Positions 12,348-30,806 of a stretch of 64,000 nt of DNA are shown here, piece by piece. The stretch spans positions 1 to 64,000 of the forward strand of contig CAVPSB010000031.1 in assembly GCA_963708025.1 (NCBI GenBank). Direction: 5' to 3'. The translations under genes and the position numbers were made by a program. How positions within the stretch are numbered: the first letter of the stretch is position 1; each line of letters begins with the position of its first letter. The notes under the pieces are model-generated. The model was not told where the DNA came from. It searched no databases and worked only from the letters and a program-made list of their open reading frames with translations. Origin of the DNA: an uncultured Candidatus Rokubacteria bacterium. Lineage in GTDB: Bacteria > Methylomirabilota > Methylomirabilia > Rokubacteriales > DASRDR01.

Positions 12348-14435
12348 TCAAATGCCCGGAATCTCGAGCGTCTGGGAATCGGCGACGCGACTTCGTGGGC
12401 GACGCGTCCGCCCCTCCACCGCCTTCGCGGCGGTGCGAATGGCCTCGGTGTCGAGCACCGCAGGATCGAGCTGCCATGGGGCACACGGCACCACCTGGGT
12501 GGCCTCGAGGATGCCGCGCGTGATGAGCCGTCGCAGCACCCACGGACCGACGCCGAGCCGATCGGCCGCTTGGTTCAGCGTGAGCATGGGCGTCGCCCGG
12601 GCCTCGTCATAGTCCACGAGGCGGAGCCGTTTGCGGAGCGACAGGACGCGCGAGGCCGTCCAGGTGTTGCCGGCGCCCGTGCGCAGGCGCAGTCGGTTGA
12701 GGCTGGCGGCGATCTCGTGATCGGGCCACCCGCCCGCCATGCGCCGCACGACGCCTTCGGCATCCGGGCCGGTCCGGTGGCGATGCTCGCCCGGCTTCGG
12801 TCGGGGAATCCGCACCTCGGAGTGTCGGCCGCCCGCCCAGTGGATCACCAGCACGATCTCGCGCGCGGGCTCATCGGCATTGGCGATGATCTCGTGGATC
12901 AGCAGGCGCGCGATGCGTTGCTTGACGCGCATCTCGCTGCTCGGCGCATCCCAGACTCTGCGGAGATCGGTGGCCAGCGATTCGAGGGTGGCTCGATCGA
13001 CGCGTCACGGATCGCCGCCGCGAGCCGTTCCTTGCGCCTGCAGTCGCCCTTCGAGCTCGGCGACCCGTTCGAGCGCGCCGTTCCAGCGCGCTTCGAGCTC
13101 CGCGGCCACCAGACGGTTGTCAGGGTCGACGGCTTCGTAGCGTCTCGCGGCGAGCGCCGCCTGGTAGTGGGCTTGCTCCAGTTCCAGCGCCAGCGCGCGG
13201 TGCTGGTCGTGCGTCGTGCTGCTCGGCGAGGTCGCCCGCCTCGATCGCGGCCTGCAACGCCTGGCCTTGGACCACCGTCAGGATCGCGGCGCTCACCGTC
13301 TCGTCGGGTCGACGGGCGCTAAAGCCGATGCAGCGCGGGGCGGCCTGCGCGCGATTGGCTTGCCGGCATTGGTAGCGCGCGTAGCCCCCGCGCTCATACA
13401 CGACGTGCAGCATGCGTCCGCACCGCCGCGCAGCGCAGCAGTCCGGCCAGCAAGCACCGGCCGCCGCGGCCGGCCTTGCGGGCCGTGGTGCCCTGTCATG
13501 TGCGCGTTCTCCTCGAGCCGCCGCTGGTTGCGCTCGAACTGCTCCCACGAGATATAGCCGGGGTGGTGATCGCGAATCAAGGCCGTCCACTGGGGCATCG
13601 GCTTGTCGTGCCCGTGCGTCCGAGTCGCGCGGCCCTCCACGACGCGGGTCCGCGTCTCCCGCCGGCCGAACGCGTAGGCGCCCGCATAGAACGGACTCCG
13701 CACGATGGACAGCACCATCCGGTAGGTCGCGGGTCGCCAGGTGATCGCCCGCGGTCGTTCGTGCTCGAGCGTGGGGAGCGACAGGTGCTCGTCCCGCAGC
13801 CACATCAGCACCTGGCGGACGCTGCCGAACTCCACGAGCTTGTCGAGCACCATCCGGATCGCCTGCTGCACGCGCCGGTCCGGATGCCGCTCGATGTGGC
13901 CATCCGGGGTCCACCCCAACCCGGCCGGCAGCGTGAACTGGAGCGCGCCGCGCTTGGCTTTCGCGCGAATGGCCTCCTGGGAGCGCTGCCGAAACAGGCT
14001 GAGCTCGTACTCGCTGATGCTGCCCTTCACGCCCAGGATCAGCCGGTCGTCGGGCAGCGACAGATCATAGACCTGATCGAGATCGGCCACCAGGGTGGCG
14101 AGGAGCCCGCAGAGCTCGAACAGCTGGGCCCAGTCCTTCGAGTTGCGCGAGAGGCGCGAGGCTTCGAAGCACAGGATCAGGCCGACGTGCCCCAGGGAGA
14201 CCTCCGTCGACCAGGTGCTGGAAGCCGGCCCGGTGCGCGAAGCCGGCGGCCGAGATGCCGAGGTCGTCCACGATGGTGACGGGCTTCGGCCAGCCGAAGG
14301 CGACCGCCTTGTCGCGCAGGCCGACCTGGATGCGCGTGCTCTCGGCATGGCTGCGCACTTGCTCGGGGCTGGACTGGCGGACGTAGACGATCGCGGTGCG
14401 CTTCAAGTGCTGGGGGTGATCCTATCGGCCCGCAT
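12348..14435 (-). CDS. Large serine recombinase with several frameshifts
   Basis: AIVYVRQSS, EASRLSRN, SPFYAGAY, CGRMLHV, LEARWN, C-terminal HTH LTLNQAADRLGV. Confidence 0.9.
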
Positions 14436-14617: not shown

Positions 14618-14929
14618 GCAGCCCTCCTTCGAGGGCATTGACGCACGAGGGGGGTCGGGCGCGCGAGGCGCGACAGCGTCCAGCAGCTCCCGGAGCTCCT
14701 GCAGCGCCGCGATCGACACGACCGGCGCGCCGACGGTCAGGGCCGCGCACGCCGCGGCATCGGTCATCCAGGCGGGCAGGGCGCCCGTCGCCCCGTCAGG
14801 CAGCTCGCAAAACAGTACTTCGCTGGTCACTCTTGTCCAAATTAGCCCGGAAGGCGGATGAGCCCCCTGGGGTATGGTGAGGTCGAGACCGACCAAGGTT
14901 CGACACCACCACGGACAGGAGGCTCACCC

Positions 14930-16093
14930 GTGAGTGGATTCTGCAGCATGTTCAGCCAGCTGCTCAAGCTGTTTCCGCGGACGGAGTTCCAGGCGCTGGT
15001 GACGCGGACGCACGCCGAGCGCCACGCCCGGGGCTTCACGTGCTGGGGGCAGTTCGTCGCCATGCTGTTCTGCCAGCTCGGCCGCGCCCACTCGCTGCGG
15101 GAGATCTGCGGGGGCCTGCGCAGCAGCGAGGGCAAGCTCAAGCACCTGGGCATCACGGCGCCGAACCGCTCGACGCTGGCCTATGCCAACGCCCATCGCC
15201 CGTGGCAGCTCTACCGGGCCGTGTTCGAGGCGCTCCTGGCGCGTTGTCAGCCCCTGGCGCAGGGCCGGCGGAAGTTCCGGTTCAAGAACAAGCTGGTGAG
15301 CCTGGACTCGACGGTGATCGACCTGTGCGCGACGCTCTTCGACTGGGCGAAGTTCCGACGGACGAAGGGGGCGGTCAAGCTCCATTGCCTGCTGGACCAC
15401 GACGGCTACCTGCCCAGCGTGGTGGTCATCACCGAGGGGAAGCGGCATGACGTGCGGGTGGCCCGCACCCTGCGCTTCGACCCCGGGACCATCGTGGTGA
15501 TGGACCGGGGGTACATCGACTACGCCTGGTTCGGGCAGCTGACGGCCCAGGAGGTGTGGTTCGTCACGCGGCTGAAGGACACCGCGGTGTACGAGGTGGT
15601 CGAGACCCGGCGGATCCCGCTCCAGGGCCGGGTGGAGCGGGACGAGGTCATGCGGCTGACCGGGGTGGGCGCCCCGGACAAGTGCCCGCACCCCTTGCGG
15701 CGGATCGAGGTCTACGACCCCGAGAAGGACATGACCCTGGTGTTCCTGACCAACCACCTGACCTTCGGGGCCACGACCATCGCCGCGATCTACAAGGACC
15801 GGTGGCAGATCGAGCTGTTCTTCAAGGCGCTGAAGCAGAACCTGAAGATCAAGACCTTCGTGGGGACCAGCGCCAATGCCCTCAAGGTCCAGGTCTGGAC
15901 GGCGCTGATCGCGATGCTGCTCCTGAAGTACCTCCAACTGCGCTCCCGCTTCGCGTGGTCGCTGTCGAATCTGGTCGCCCTGCTGCGGATGAACCTCTTC
16001 ACCCATCGCGACCTGTGGGCGTGGCTCGATCAGCCGTTCGAGGGCCCGCCCACCGTCCTCACGACCTCGCAGGGGGTCTTGGCCCTTGCCTAA
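14930..16093 (+). CDS. IS4-family DDE transposase (DUF4372-type N-terminus)
   Basis: LDSTVI, MDRGY, YKDRWQIELFFK (YREK motif); RBS AGGAGG. Confidence 0.95.
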   Translation: MSGFCSMFSQLLKLFPRTEFQALVTRTHAERHARGFTCWGQFVAMLFCQLGRAHSLREICGGLRSSEGKLKHLGITAPNRSTLAYANAHRPWQLYRAVFEALLARCQPLAQGRRKFRFKNKLVSLDSTVIDLCATLFDWAKFRRTKGAVKLHCLLDHDGYLPSVVVITEGKRHDVRVARTLRFDPGTIVVMDRGYIDYAWFGQLTAQEVWFVTRLKDTAVYEVVETRRIPLQGRVERDEVMRLTGVGAPDKCPHPLRRIEVYDPEKDMTLVFLTNHLTFGATTIAAIYKDRWQIELFFKALKQNLKIKTFVGTSANALKVQVWTALIAMLLLKYLQLRSRFAWSLSNLVALLRMNLFTHRDLWAWLDQPFEGPPTVLTTSQGVLALA

Positions 16094-16282
16094 TCGGGAC
16101 AGCACGACCCGGCAACCTGATCTCGGCCCCGGCTCCATCTTGTCCAATATCCCAGGAAATCGCGCGATGCACCGGCCGGATCCCGGCTAATTTGATGTCA
16201 TGAGAACGGCCGCGCGGCTCTGGGGGTACGCTCATGGCGAGCGCACCACCATCAAGCCAGACTTCAGAGGAGGGCCGACGTC

Positions 16283-17338
16283 ATGACATTCGTGGGATGC
16301 GACTTGCACACTCGGAATCAACACGTCGCGGTGCTCGACACGGAGACAGGCGAGGTGCAGGAACGTCGCCTCGCCCACGATGACCAGACGGTCGAGCAGT
16401 TCTATCGCTCCCTGCCACGCCCCGTCACGGTCGGGGTCGAGAGCACCGGGTACGCGCAGTGGTTTCATCGCTGATCCAGCGCCAGGGCCATACCTTGCTC
16501 GTCGGCGATGCCGCTCGGATTCGCGCCATGGTCGTGCGCAAGACCAAGACGGACCGGCGCGATGCCGCCCACTTGTTGCAGCTCCTGAGCGAGGATCGGT
16601 TTCCCGGTCATCTGGGTGCCCGATCCCCGCGTGCGCGATTTGCGCGCCCTCGTGACCCACCGCATGCGGCTCGTCCGGATGCGCACCATGGTGAAGAACG
16701 GGTTGCACGCCATCGCCCTGAACCAGCGGCTGGCCGCCGGGAGCGCCTTGTTCACGCGCCGCGGGCGGGCGCAGTTGCAGGCGCTCGCGCTGCCGCCGCA
16801 CACGACCCAGCGGCGCGATGAGAGCCTGGCGCTCCTGACCTGGCTCGACGAGCACATCGAGCCCCTGAACGCGCAGATCGCCGAGGCCGCGGACGCCGAC
16901 GACCAGGCGCGGCGGCTCATGACCCACCCCGGCGTGGGACCGCTGACGGCGCTGGCCACCGTGTTGGTCCTCGGCCCGGTGGCACGGTTTCCGACGAGCA
17001 AGCACGTGGTGAGCTACATCGGATTGGCGCCGGCCGTGGACGCCTCGGCCGAGAAATACCGACTGGGTCATGTCACGAAGCAAGGCAACGCCCTGCTCCG
17101 CTACGTGCTGGGCCAAGCCGGCCAGGTCGCGGCGCGCGCCGATGCCGACCTGCGACGCCTCTACTCGGCGGTGATGCATCGACACGGACGCGCCAAGGCC
17201 AAGGTGGCGGTGGCACGGAAGCTGCTCGTCCGTCTCTACATCATGTTGCGCGACCAGATTGACTACGACGAATTTCGGCGGCGTGGCCGACCCCCGGCAC
17301 CTCACGCGATCGCCGGCGAGGTCGCCGTGCGCACCTGA
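16283..17338 (+). CDS. IS110 DEDD recombinase (frameshifts near 16470 and 16605)
   Basis: FVGCDLH, GVES, KTDRRDA, PGVGP, SYIGLAP..SAEK, KVAVARKL. Confidence 0.9.
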
Positions 17339-17384
17339 CGTCCGGCGCGATGACGCCGGTGGGGCGTCGATCCCCAAGGCGTGA

Positions 17385-17540
17385 GGTCCAGTGCGGGCGT
17401 TCCCGAGCTGTCCATGGTCGTGGTCAGGACCGACAATTTGATTGGGACGCCCACCCTCGACGATCCCGGGATCGTCGACGATCGCACACGACATCATGCG
17501 CCGCGAGTGCGCGAATAGATGGATGGTGGACTCATGCCCT
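17385..17540 (+). ncRNA. Putative bridge/seek RNA of the IS1111-type element (ends approximate)
   Basis: Stem-flanked loops contain gctgtcca/aatttg (target) and gacatc/atagatg (donor). Confidence 0.75.
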
Positions 17541-18101
17541 TCAGGGACCGGACCCTCCCGCGGCGGCGCGCCTCCGCGGAGAAACCACACCGACGCGGCG
17601 TCACAGCCGGGGCGGCCGATCCCGGCTCTCGACGGAGGAGGGTCCACTCGAAGAATCATCTTGACAGACAGACCGTTCTCATAGACGGACAGCAGTGTTC
17701 GCTGGTACTCCGTGGGACCGTGCGCCTGACGCGTGCGATCTGGCCGTACAGCGGGTGCCAGCCGTAGTGAACGGTGACCTGCTTCGCTCTCTCGGTAGAA
17801 TGTAACGGCCTCCCATGCGCGCTGGCGCCCACAGGTCGTGGGCTATGGTCGGGTGGCGCCCGAGGCCGCCGCCCGTGACCCCGCCGAGGCCCGCCCGGTT
17901 CCGCCGCCCCCACGCCGCAACTGGACCTGGGCGGCCCTGATGCGGCGGGCGTTCGCGCTCGACGTGTTGGCGTGCCCGCGCTGCGGCGGGCGGCTGCGCG
18001 TGATCGCCACGGTCGAGGACCCGCTCGCGGTGCGCCAGATCCTCGCCGCCCGGCACTCGGCCGAGACGGTCGGTCCTGGCCCGCCGGCCGGTGCCCCCCT
18101 A

Positions 18102-20751: not shown

Positions 20752-21795
20752 TCAGACTGGGACGGCCGCCTTGGCCGCGCGGCGCGACACGGCGCGCGCG
20801 TCATACCTCGTGCCGTCGCGCAGCATCGCGTAGAGGATGCCGGCCAGGCGGCGGGCCAGCGCGACGACCGCGATCTTCTTCCCGCGGCGCGCGGCGATGC
20901 GCGTTGCCCAGCCCCGCAGCGCCTCCGTCTGCAGATGACGACAGCGGAGGATCGACACGGCCGCCTGGACGAGCAACCAGCGCATCCGCGTATTGCCGGC
21001 CTTGGTGATCCGGCCGCGCCGTTGGCTCTTCCCCGAGCTCAACTCCCGGGGGACGAGGCCGAGATACGCCTCCACCTCATGCGCCCGGTGAAAGCGCTGC
21101 GCGTCATCGATCGTGGCCACGAAGGCCGCCGCCGTGACCGGCCCCACGCTGGGGACGGTCCGCAGGCGCTGCACGCGCACATCCGGGCGCGTGACGTGCT
21201 CGATCACCTCGTCCGAGTAGGCGAGTTGCTGATTGACGGGCCGCATCACCGCCAGCAAGGGCGCCACCTCCGAGAGCAGGCGGCCCGGCAGCGGCAGCGC
21301 CACGACGCGCCGGATGAACGTGTCCGCGCTCCCCGTGGGCACACGCCCCCCGTGGCGGCGCAGGAGAGCCCGGATCAGGGCGATGTAGCCGGTGCGCGTC
21401 CGGACCAAGGCATCGCGCACCGCCAAGCGCCCCCGCACATGCCGCTGCGCGTCCGAGAGGCGATGCGCCGGGCGATAGGCCCCCAGCAGGCAGGCCTCGG
21501 CCAGCGCCCGGGCATCCCGCCGATCGGTCTTGACCTTCCGAGTCCGCGAGGCGTACATCGGCGCGAAGTTGGGGTCCGCCACCACGACCTCGTGGCCCAA
21601 GGCCTCGAGGCACCGGGCCACCCATTCACTCTCCGTCGAGGCTTCGACGAGGATCCGGGCTGGTGGCCGGCCGCCCAGCACCTCGGCAAACCGCCCGGGC
21701 TCGGTGCGGATCCGGCATTCGCTCAATTGGCCGCCCTCGCGAAGGATGCAGATCTGGCTTTCCTTCTTGTGCAGGTCGATGCCAACATAGTCCAT
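20752..21795 (-). CDS. IS110 DEDD recombinase, intact
   Basis: YVGIDLH, VEAS, KTDRRDA, YLGLVPRELSSG, VALARRL. Confidence 0.95.
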   Translation of the reverse strand: MDYVGIDLHKKESQICILREGGQLSECRIRTEPGRFAEVLGGRPPARILVEASTESEWVARCLEALGHEVVVADPNFAPMYASRTRKVKTDRRDARALAEACLLGAYRPAHRLSDAQRHVRGRLAVRDALVRTRTGYIALIRALLRRHGGRVPTGSADTFIRRVVALPLPGRLLSEVAPLLAVMRPVNQQLAYSDEVIEHVTRPDVRVQRLRTVPSVGPVTAAAFVATIDDAQRFHRAHEVEAYLGLVPRELSSGKSQRRGRITKAGNTRMRWLLVQAAVSILRCRHLQTEALRGWATRIAARRGKKIAVVALARRLAGILYAMLRDGTRYDARAVSRRAAKAAVPV

Positions 21796-29279: not shown

Positions 29280-30806
29280 CTTCTATGAAGCGGCCCCCCG
29301 TGTCAAGCGAGAGCTGCGTGTGTGGTGTCCCTCTCTTCCTCTCCTCCGTCCGAGGTCAGCGGTCCACGGCGATGGACCCACGGTTCCCGCGAGGTTCAGT
29401 CATCCTTCTATTCGCGCTCGTCAGGGACGAGCGGGGCTCGCCGGCGCATGAGGGGAGTCGAAGGGTGGGGGTGCCATCTACGCAACGGCTCTCGAACTGC
29501 GGCCAAGTCAACACACGCACTCACCCACCCGTCGAACCCGCGCGAGACCAGGGTGCCGCTCATCGTGACACGGACGGTGCCCGACTGCTCAGGGGTCGGC
29601 GCCTCACTCGGATGACCTGGGTATTCCCGAAATCGGCCATGGTCGCGTTCGCGACGCGCCGCCTCTCAGACCGGGACGGCCGCCGCGGTGGCCTTGCGCG
29701 GCACGGCCCGCGGCTCATACGCCGTGCCGTCGCGCAGCATCGCGTAGAGGAGGCCCGCCAGACGGCGGGCCAGCGCGACGACGGCAATCTTCTTGCCGCG
29801 GCGCGCCGCGATGCCCGTGGCCCAACGCCGCAGGGCGGCCGTGCGGGGATCGCGCAGGCGCAGGATCGACACGGCCGCCTGGACGAGCAACCAGCGCATC
29901 CGGGTATTGCCCGCCTTGGTGATCCGGCCGCGCCGTTGGCTCTCCCCCGAGCTCAGCTCCCTCGGGACGAGGCCGAGATACGCCTCCACCTCATGTGCCC
30001 GGCGAAAGCGCTGCGCGTCATCGATCGTGGCCACGAAGGCCGCCGCCGTGACCGGCCCCACGCTGGGGACGGTCTGCAGGCGCTGCACGCGCGTATCCGG
30101 GCGCGTGACGTGCTCGATCACCGCGTCCGAGTAGGCGAGCTGCTGATTGACGAGCCGCATCACCGCCAGCAAGGGCGCCACCTCCGAGAGCAGGCGGCCC
30201 GGCAGCGACAGCGCCATCACCCGCCGACTGAGAGTCTCCGCACTCCCCGTGGGCACGCGCCAGCCGTGCCGGGCGCAGCAACGCCCGGGTCAGGGCGATG
30301 TATCCGGTGCGCGTCCGGACCACGGCATCGCGCACCGCCAAGCGGCCCCGGACATGCCGCTGCGCGTCGGACAGCCGATGGGCGGGGCGATACGCGCCGA
30401 GCAGACAGGCCTCCTGTAGCGCCCGGGCATCCCGCCGATCGGTCTTGACCTTCCGGGTCCGCGTGGCATACATCGGCGCGAAGTTCGGGTCCGCCACCAC
30501 GACCTCGTGGCCCAAGGCCTCGAGGCACCGGGCCACCCATTCACTCTCCGTCGAGGCTTCGACGAGGATCCGGGCTCGCGGCCGGCCGCCCAACACCGCC
30601 GCGAACCGCTCGCGCTCGGTGCGGATGCGGCATTCGATCACCTCGCCCGCCTCGGTGAGCAGACAGATCTGGCTTTCCTTCTTGTGCAGATCGATGCCAA
30701 CATACTCCATGGCTGGCCCCCCTCGTGCGCCCGTGAGCGCGTGTTCTCTCAGTGGGGCAGTGTATGCCACCACGTCGAGCTGGGGGTCAGCCGCTTCATC
30801 CCATCT
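29280..30806 (-). mobile_element. IS110/IS1111-type element, copy B; recombinase 30710-29666 with a frameshift near 30270
   Basis: Same IRs, CT core and guide segments as copy A; similar but not identical protein. Confidence 0.9.

Follow-up and report, generated by a model that had tools for sequence, protein, structure and literature searches.

The 64,000-nt stretch analysed here (the window) covers positions 1–64,000 of contig CAVPSB010000031.1 from the assembly of an uncultured Candidatus Rokubacteria bacterium (GCA_963708025.1). At positions 16193–17685 it carries a decayed insertion sequence (IS) of the IS1111 type (IS110 family). With a probability of about 90%, it was RNA-guided site-specific recombination that placed this element in the right terminal repeat of an IS4-family element. 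An earlier interpretation made from the letters of the window (the sequence-only reading) had described the insert as an RNA-programmed parasite of IS4 ends. This description was supported by the guide-matched insertion sites found among relatives, but the window copy itself proved to be a frameshifted, single-copy fossil and not an active parasite. Features are given on the forward strand (+) unless marked (−).

The boundaries of the 1.49-kb insert were established from the empty site, the junctions, and the subterminal repeats. After excision in silico, 16185–16194 and 17688–17697 were joined into a 20-mer of the IS4 right repeat. At up to three mismatches, the only match to this 20-mer in the window was the opposite end of the IS4-family element (14828–14847, minus strand, two mismatches), and none of 100 shuffled sequences gave a match. 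Moreover, the empty site was present letter for letter in the same genome, in an uninterrupted IS4 end on another contig (G000:C34:216820-216838). The rebuilt site and its 18/20 agreement with the other IS4 end, both proposed in the sequence-only reading, were thus confirmed. The insertion was precise and located between AATT and (T/C)GGACAGCAGTG, 10–12 bp from the IS4 tip. Previously the element had been delimited at 16195–17687, which is the same insertion with only the crossover dinucleotide assigned otherwise; we count the left TG as part of the IS, and with this assignment there is no target duplication. The left and right subterminal inverted repeats, atgagaacgg (16200–16209) and ccgttctcat (17673–17682), were 10 bp long in the window and up to 13 bp among relatives. 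Outside them, the element extends by 7 bp on the left (TGATGTC) and by 3 bp on the right (AGA), as defined by the empty site and the junctions. The non-coding part downstream of the transposase gene was about 347 nt long (17339–17685) vs. about 90 nt upstream (16193–16282). Subterminal repeats of about 11–13 bp, extensions of 7 bp on the left and 3 bp on the right, and a longer downstream non-coding region have been described for the IS1111 group (PMC11187229).

The insert encodes a DEDD transposase of the IS110 family, which is a pseudogene in the window (16283–17338; DEDD_Tnp_IS110 and Transposase_20 domains) and was compared with the intact 351-aa genes of two relatives, L007 and L008, about 89% identical to it. 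Transposases of the IS1111 group combine a DEDD (RuvC-like) domain at the N-terminus with PF02371 at the C-terminus. The domain PF02371 was recognised with 77.1 bits. PF01548 scored 24.2 bits on the first fragment, under the cut-off of 29 because this fragment comprises only 63 aa. The intact relative L007 reached 221.9 bits with NF033542 (IS110 family RNA-guided transposase; cut-off 140). The group carries the C-terminal motif GL-P----S(T)G; in the window copy and in L007 and L008, the sequence was G-L-A-P-x-x-x-A-S-A, with G, L, P, and S present and A instead of G as the last residue.

A region of approximately 150 nt located 3' of the transposase gene (17385–17535) was found to be conserved and structured by nhmmer search, alignment, and counts of base pairs, and represents a candidate seekRNA or bridge RNA. 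It contains two loop segments matching the target and two matching the element's own ends. Relatives were collected from 21 loci on genome contigs and from 80 of 366 metagenome relatives, and the nhmmer profile of the downstream region matched 88 of the 102 sources, window included. The 61 distinct downstream sequences aligned as a fixed scaffold. According to RNAalifold and pair counts on these sequences, a five-helix structure of 30 pairs had 98.3% of its cells paired, with compensatory change at five pairs (21 cells); these values were reached by none of 500 shuffles, and slid controls paired at 29–42%. The stem enclosing the target guides is formed by gggcgttccc (17395–17404) and gggacgccc (17444–17452). 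In the profile search of the genome, the window copy was the only significant match to the scaffold, and no others appeared below E = 0.6.

Within the target loop, the 5' guide gctgtcca (17407–17414) is complementary to the top strand TG+GACAGC in the tip half of the IS4 repeat, and the 3' guide aatttg (17435–17440) is identical to the top strand AATT+TG in the inner half. Both were where the sequence-only reading had placed them, between gggcgttccc and gggacgccc. In the 5'–3' direction of the RNA, the top-strand match comes before the bottom-strand match, with an overlap between the two in the target. Three classes of guides were distinguished among relatives, and the guides of each class matched the site in which its copies are inserted; the final TG of the 3' guide was constant across all classes. 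Class A, which targets the IS4 inverted repeat, comprised 10 copies, window included. Class B comprised 31 copies (L034–L044, L047–L067, and others; for example, L042:1-1500), each inserted 10 bp from the tip of an element of the IS3-family type, whose rve and HTH_Tnp_1 genes are encoded on the opposite strand. The distance from the tip was the same as in the IS4 case; left flanks of class B were conserved over 60 nt, and right flanks diverged after 10 nt. The 46 copies of class C were found at the stop-codon region of ABC_sub_bind (PF04392) genes (among L009, L012–L018, and L046–L107); the copy in L054 has one such gene on either side. ABC_sub_bind is a large paralogous family, and its conserved 3' end gives many similar sites.

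All seven readable right flanks of class A, window included, had the form (T/C/G)GGACA(GC/AG)AGTG followed by unrelated DNA, and all eight readable left flanks, window included, ended in AATTTG. Since the right flanks diverge beyond the repeat, each copy sits at the tip of a different host copy. In the nine class A copies other than that of the window, the six right and seven left readable flanks were all IS4-type half-repeats, as the sequence-only reading had expected of further copies. Throughout the readable class A flanks, we observed one target, one orientation relative to the repeat tip, and no duplication, which is the behaviour of the IS1111 group. An IS4 body or end piece adjoined the copies in L008 (81% nucleotide identity), L033 (85%), L032 (end piece, 79%), and L029 (88%). 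The IS4 body in L029 was in reverse orientation, so this copy occupies the left IS4 repeat. For L007 and L031, with flanks of 55 and 175 nt, the available sequence was of insufficient length or too divergent to give a BLAST match with the IS4 body.

To compare guides and sites, positions matching between each guide and the flanks were counted for 71 copies; nine loci with mis-parsed or rearranged right ends (L016, L028, L058, L062, L067, L073, L101, L102, and L107) were omitted. The 5' guide agreed with its own flank at 8.13 of 9 Watson–Crick positions, compared to 2.7–4.2 with flanks of the other classes. For the 3' guide, the agreement with the own flank was 6.0 (class A), 4.7 (class B), and 5.7 (class C) of 6, and with other-class flanks 2.3–4.2. 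The correspondence extended to single letters. Copies with a guide predicting GACAGC were inserted in GACAGC repeats (window, L008, L031, and L033) and those with a guide predicting GACAAG in GACAAG repeats (L007 and L029). Of the two class A variants, one matches the right IS4 repeat and the other the left. In class C, a single C/G difference in the guide tracked ATGACC vs. ATCACC flanks. As far as the compared loci go, this matching of guides and sites across classes is the natural equivalent of a guide-swap experiment.

The same matches could be explained differently if the transposase protein itself recognised the IS4 repeat and the downstream matches were by-products, namely copies of the target or of the ends picked up in transposition and having no guiding role. 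The donor segments resemble the element's own ends and could have arisen by duplication, and the constant TG of the 3' guide is uninformative; both points speak in favour of such recognition. However, the transposases of the classes are 70–75% identical, yet their targets share only the crossover region. Both loop segments follow each target, one as its reverse complement and the other in the same sense, while the surrounding stems are fixed. In addition, the RNA was found by experiment to be essential and reprogrammable in other IS1111-type elements (PMC11187229). Direct recognition by the protein thus seems to us extremely improbable compared to guidance by RNA.

The second loop matches the abutted ends of the element. 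Donor guide 1 (gacatca, 17490–17496) is complementary to the left end TGATGTC, and donor guide 2 (atagatgg, 17515–17522) is identical to the right end ATAGA + TG + G; the slightly shorter segments noticed previously, gacatc (17490–17495) and atagatg (17515–17521), were both found. The left end ATGTC was present in 48 of 48 copies, with donor guide 1 exactly complementary in 20, carrying one G–T wobble in 27, and one mismatch in 1. Over 6 nt, donor guide 2 was the same as the right end in 59 of 65 copies; its variants ATAGAT and ATGGAT shifted along with that end.

The dinucleotide at the left junction (before ATGTC) was TG in 78 of 79 copies. At the right junction of 71 copies, it was TG in 34, TC in 35, CG in one (the window), and GG in one, and it was predicted by the 5' guide in 68 of the 71. 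Uninterrupted class C sites occurred both with TC and with TG, and contigs of related IS4 ends from public sequencing runs crossed the insertion point uninterrupted with CG or GG there. Given this variation in uninterrupted sites, the CG of the window may stem from the target and not from a later mutation; if so, the original right IS4 repeat matches the left one at 17 of 20 positions, not at 18. These data suggest that donor and target crossover dinucleotides need not be identical in this clade.

A −35-like hexamer, TTGACA (17661–17666), faces GATGAT or GACGAT at a distance of 17 nt only if the ends are abutted in a circle. The sequence-only reading had paired it with GACGAT across the abutted ends, and this arrangement was found; the downstream hexamer becomes GATGAT if the left copy of the dinucleotide is kept. 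Of 70 relatives, 57 had TTGAC, and GATGAT followed at 17 nt in 28 and at 18 nt in 27. No sigma-70-like site was detected in the linear element by a sigma-70 scan. A promoter at the circle junction was described for both families (PMC11187229).

Several observations weigh against the RNA-guided insertion or weaken the evidence for it. The scaffold is so conserved that compensatory change was limited to 5 of 30 pairs. Folding energies of single sequences were no better than those of shuffles in this GC-rich DNA (z −0.8 and −0.4), and since single-sequence folding resembled the shuffles, it was used as evidence neither way. No Rfam family matched between 14000 and 19000 at E up to 1. No RNA was seen: the contigs from RNA libraries (X19 and X20) come from relatives and are uninformative on transcription, ends, and strand, and the share of sampled words in any sequencing run was at most 0.22. 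Among class A guides, L028 adjoins a tyrosine recombinase gene without an IS4 body; only the left half-site was present there, and the right end was rearranged (L028:1-1030 and 2500-2600). It may be an off-target insertion or a secondary rearrangement. L030 carries a guide of the GACAAG type in a repeat of the GACAGC type, with two mismatches. Donor guide 1 shows no covariation because the left end is invariant, and the window itself has ATAGAC at the right end and CG at the right junction, where its guides predict ATAGAT and TG. Finally, copies within a class share descent, so the 71 copies represent only few independent retargeting events, namely three classes and several variants that differ by one base.

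By analogy with ISEc11, ISKpn4, ISPa11, and IS621, the insertion could have proceeded as follows. The element would excise as a circle, in which the −35 hexamer of the right end is joined to a −10 hexamer across the junction, and the transcript of the circle would yield a guide RNA to which the transposase binds. In this RNA, one internal loop would recognise the target by pairing with its tip half on the top strand and with its inner half on the bottom strand, and the second loop would pair likewise with the abutted ends of the element. The transposase would then exchange strands at the dinucleotide after AATT. From the same analogy, we infer that RNA of the downstream region was probably made and used.

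The host of the insert is an IS4-family element, which spans 14828–17697 with the insert in its right repeat. Its left terminal inverted repeat (14828–14847) matched the rebuilt right repeat at 18 of 20 positions (0 of 100 shuffles). The transposase gene (14858–16093) is an open frame of 411 aa with DUF4372 and DDE_Tnp_1 domains and scored 264.5 bits with NCBIfam NF033592 "IS4 family transposase" (cut-off 115). The right repeat is split: its inner part, ggctaatt (16185–16192), was identified by means of the uninterrupted paralogue on contig C34 and is separated from the crossover dinucleotide (CG here, TG in most relatives) and the outer 10 bp, gacagcagtg (17686–17697). The IS4 family is characterised by target duplications of 9–12 bp. 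Such a duplication, the 9-bp direct repeat TTCGCTGGT, was read directly on both sides of the element (14819–14827 and 17698–17706). A second IS4 copy of the genome (G000:C34:214581-216838), 89–91% identical, has an uninterrupted right end. The IS1111-type element is present as a single copy in the 8.17-Mb assembly, and about six matching IS4-type ends remained unoccupied.

It is plausible that the insertion would disable the right end and immobilise the IS4 host, because the outer 10 bp of the repeat now lie about 1.5 kb from the rest. The opposite would hold if the IS4 and the IS1111-type element moved as one composite unit: the IS4 would not be immobilised, and occupied ends would spread with the composite. 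The composite in the window does have an intact 9-bp duplication on both sides, although a duplication is expected whichever event came first. About 25 class B loci share the same occupied IS3-type end, each followed by different flanking DNA, as spreading of a composite would predict. On the other hand, free IS4 ends exist in the same genome, including the other end of the window copy and both ends of the C34 copy. Insertions occur in the left or the right IS4 repeat with the matching guide variant for each, and the IS4 hosts are only 79–88% identical while their inserts are about 88–92% identical. Joint movement is therefore considered very unlikely, and separate insertion of the IS1111-type element into IS4 ends is preferred.

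Some minor observations concern the IS4 elements of this genome and their surroundings. The C34 copy is interrupted by 882 bp of inserted DNA (G000:C34:215135-216015; L004:2055-2935). The start of this insert matched Rfam RF02003 (group II intron D1-D4) with 45.4 bits (gathering score 49, E = 1.3e-8), and the insert looks like a group II intron that lacks an open reading frame and lies within the transposase gene. A miniature IS4 derivative of approximately 120 bp, consisting of both ends only, is located at G000:C19:76425-76546 (in L005) and is surrounded by the 9-bp direct repeat GTCGTAGGT. Directly left of the IS4 element of the window lies a serine recombinase gene with Resolvase and Recombinase domains, 13293–14406 (−). 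It is divided between two overlapping frames (13293–14348 and 14065–14406) and is probably frameshifted.

Targeting of other mobile elements by IS110-family members has precedents. In 2003, Partridge and Hall reportedly described IS4321 and IS5075 as inserting in the 38-bp terminal repeats of Tn21-family transposons. Like these elements, ours is of the IS1111 type and has a fixed target within the terminal inverted repeat of another element, entered in one orientation; unlike in their case, the host is an IS4-family IS of uncultured soil bacteria and not a Tn3-family transposon. Insertions into Tn21 repeats are generally regarded as disabling that end. A direct precedent for an IS110-family element aimed at the inverted repeats of another IS is IS1383, which, in Pseudomonas putida H, reportedly integrates in those of IS1384 (Muller, Lauf, and Herrmann, 2001). 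That case concerns another organism and another host IS family than ours, and guide RNA analysis was not yet available then. Our literature search found no IS110-family element targeting IS4-family repeats, which does not show that none exists; the supplementary target lists of PMC11187229 and PMC11208160 may include IS ends.

The element is similar to ISEc11, ISKpn4, ISPst6, and ISPa11, for which seekRNAs were described (Siddiquee et al., 2024; PMC11187229), in its DEDD transposase of approximately 350 aa, the 7/3 extensions, and the long downstream region. The two short target matches of our element are also arranged as in IS1111-type seekRNAs, in which the match to the top strand is the more 5' one and overlaps in the target with that to the bottom strand (PMC11187229). 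Natural retargeting between close relatives also has a counterpart there, in the pair ISEc11/ISXne4. Differences from the elements of that paper are the C-terminal motif, S-A here vs. SG, TG, or occasionally TA, and the target, which is here the repeat of an IS4-family element. For 93.0% of the elements in the IS1111 group, Durrant et al. (2024; PMC11208160) predicted a bridge RNA in the right end. As in the bridge RNA of IS621, a member of the IS110 group, each loop of the candidate RNA is devoted to one partner, the first matching the target on both strands and the second the abutted donor ends on both strands, around a shared crossover dinucleotide (PMC11208160). IS621 is reportedly also the subject of Hiraizumi et al. 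(2024; PMC11208158). Unlike in IS621, the candidate RNA is here encoded at the 3' end, the order of strand matches is reversed, and donor and target dinucleotides seemingly need not agree (left TG in 78 of 79 copies; right TG, TC, CG, or GG). The closest plasmid-borne transposases in PLSDB were at most 37% identical, which indicates a new, unnamed IS clade and not a new kind of system.

The mechanism itself (seekRNA or bridge RNA) and the targeting of repeats of other elements are already known, and no new mechanism is described here. Tentatively, and with more doubt than confidence, we propose that one soil-bacterial IS1111-type clade was retargeted in nature by changes of only a few guide letters to the ends of two unrelated IS families, IS4 and IS3 (each 10 bp from the tip), and to the stop-codon region of ABC_sub_bind genes, and that a match between donor and target dinucleotides is not needed. 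IS621 is reportedly dependent on matching cores. If our proposal is true, strand exchange in this clade would tolerate or work around the core mismatches said to block IS621, and full complementarity of the 3' guide would exist with the product, not with the substrate. The clade also provides a natural data set of about 88 related elements with a fixed RNA scaffold, in which guide letters and insertion sites change together; among them are two guide variants, one suited to the left and one to the right repeat of a single kind of host element. It could inform on guide length, wobble tolerance, and rules for the crossover dinucleotide in IS1111-type systems, which are less studied than IS621. 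IS4- and IS3-family ends join the mobile-element ends that serve as landing sites for IS110-family elements.

The transposase gene of the window copy is disrupted. Relative to the intact genes of L007 and L008, one base was lost after 16468, and one extra base was present at 16598, which left about 43 codons out of frame with an in-frame TGA at 16472–16474. A second compensating pair of single-base shifts was located at 17291 and 17312. Frameshifts in this gene had been noted in the sequence-only reading and are real relative to these two relatives. Production of the transposase by the window copy is thus precluded by two frameshifts and a stop; as judged from the gene, it is dead, a fossil that no longer encodes an intact enzyme.

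If the frameshifts were assembly errors, the window copy would be intact and active. In favour of this, the conserved amino acids can still be read from the shifted segment in its own frame, which means that the changes are either recent or artefactual; moreover, the two shifts compensate each other, and one of them lies in a GG. The base missing from the window after 16468 is present in contigs of related copies, namely in all 3 contigs of the two RNA-library runs and in X1 at 72 of 97 depth. Near 16598, related contigs show 1-base deletions at 16600 and 16603, at only part of the covering depth. An assembly artefact would have to explain four individual one-base differences that form two compensating pairs, and the first difference lies outside any homopolymer. 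It would also leave aside that the element is single-copy even though about six matching IS4-type ends are free, and that its right end and junction differ from what its guides predict. We consider the error unlikely and infer that the frameshifts are probably genuine. No close intact transposase able to act in trans was detected in the genome, where the best IS110-family genes were 33–35% identical. Two further IS110-family genes lie in the window, at 20794–21795 (−), with an open frame of 400 aa, and at 29693–30223 (−); they are 33% and 35% identical to the intact relative.

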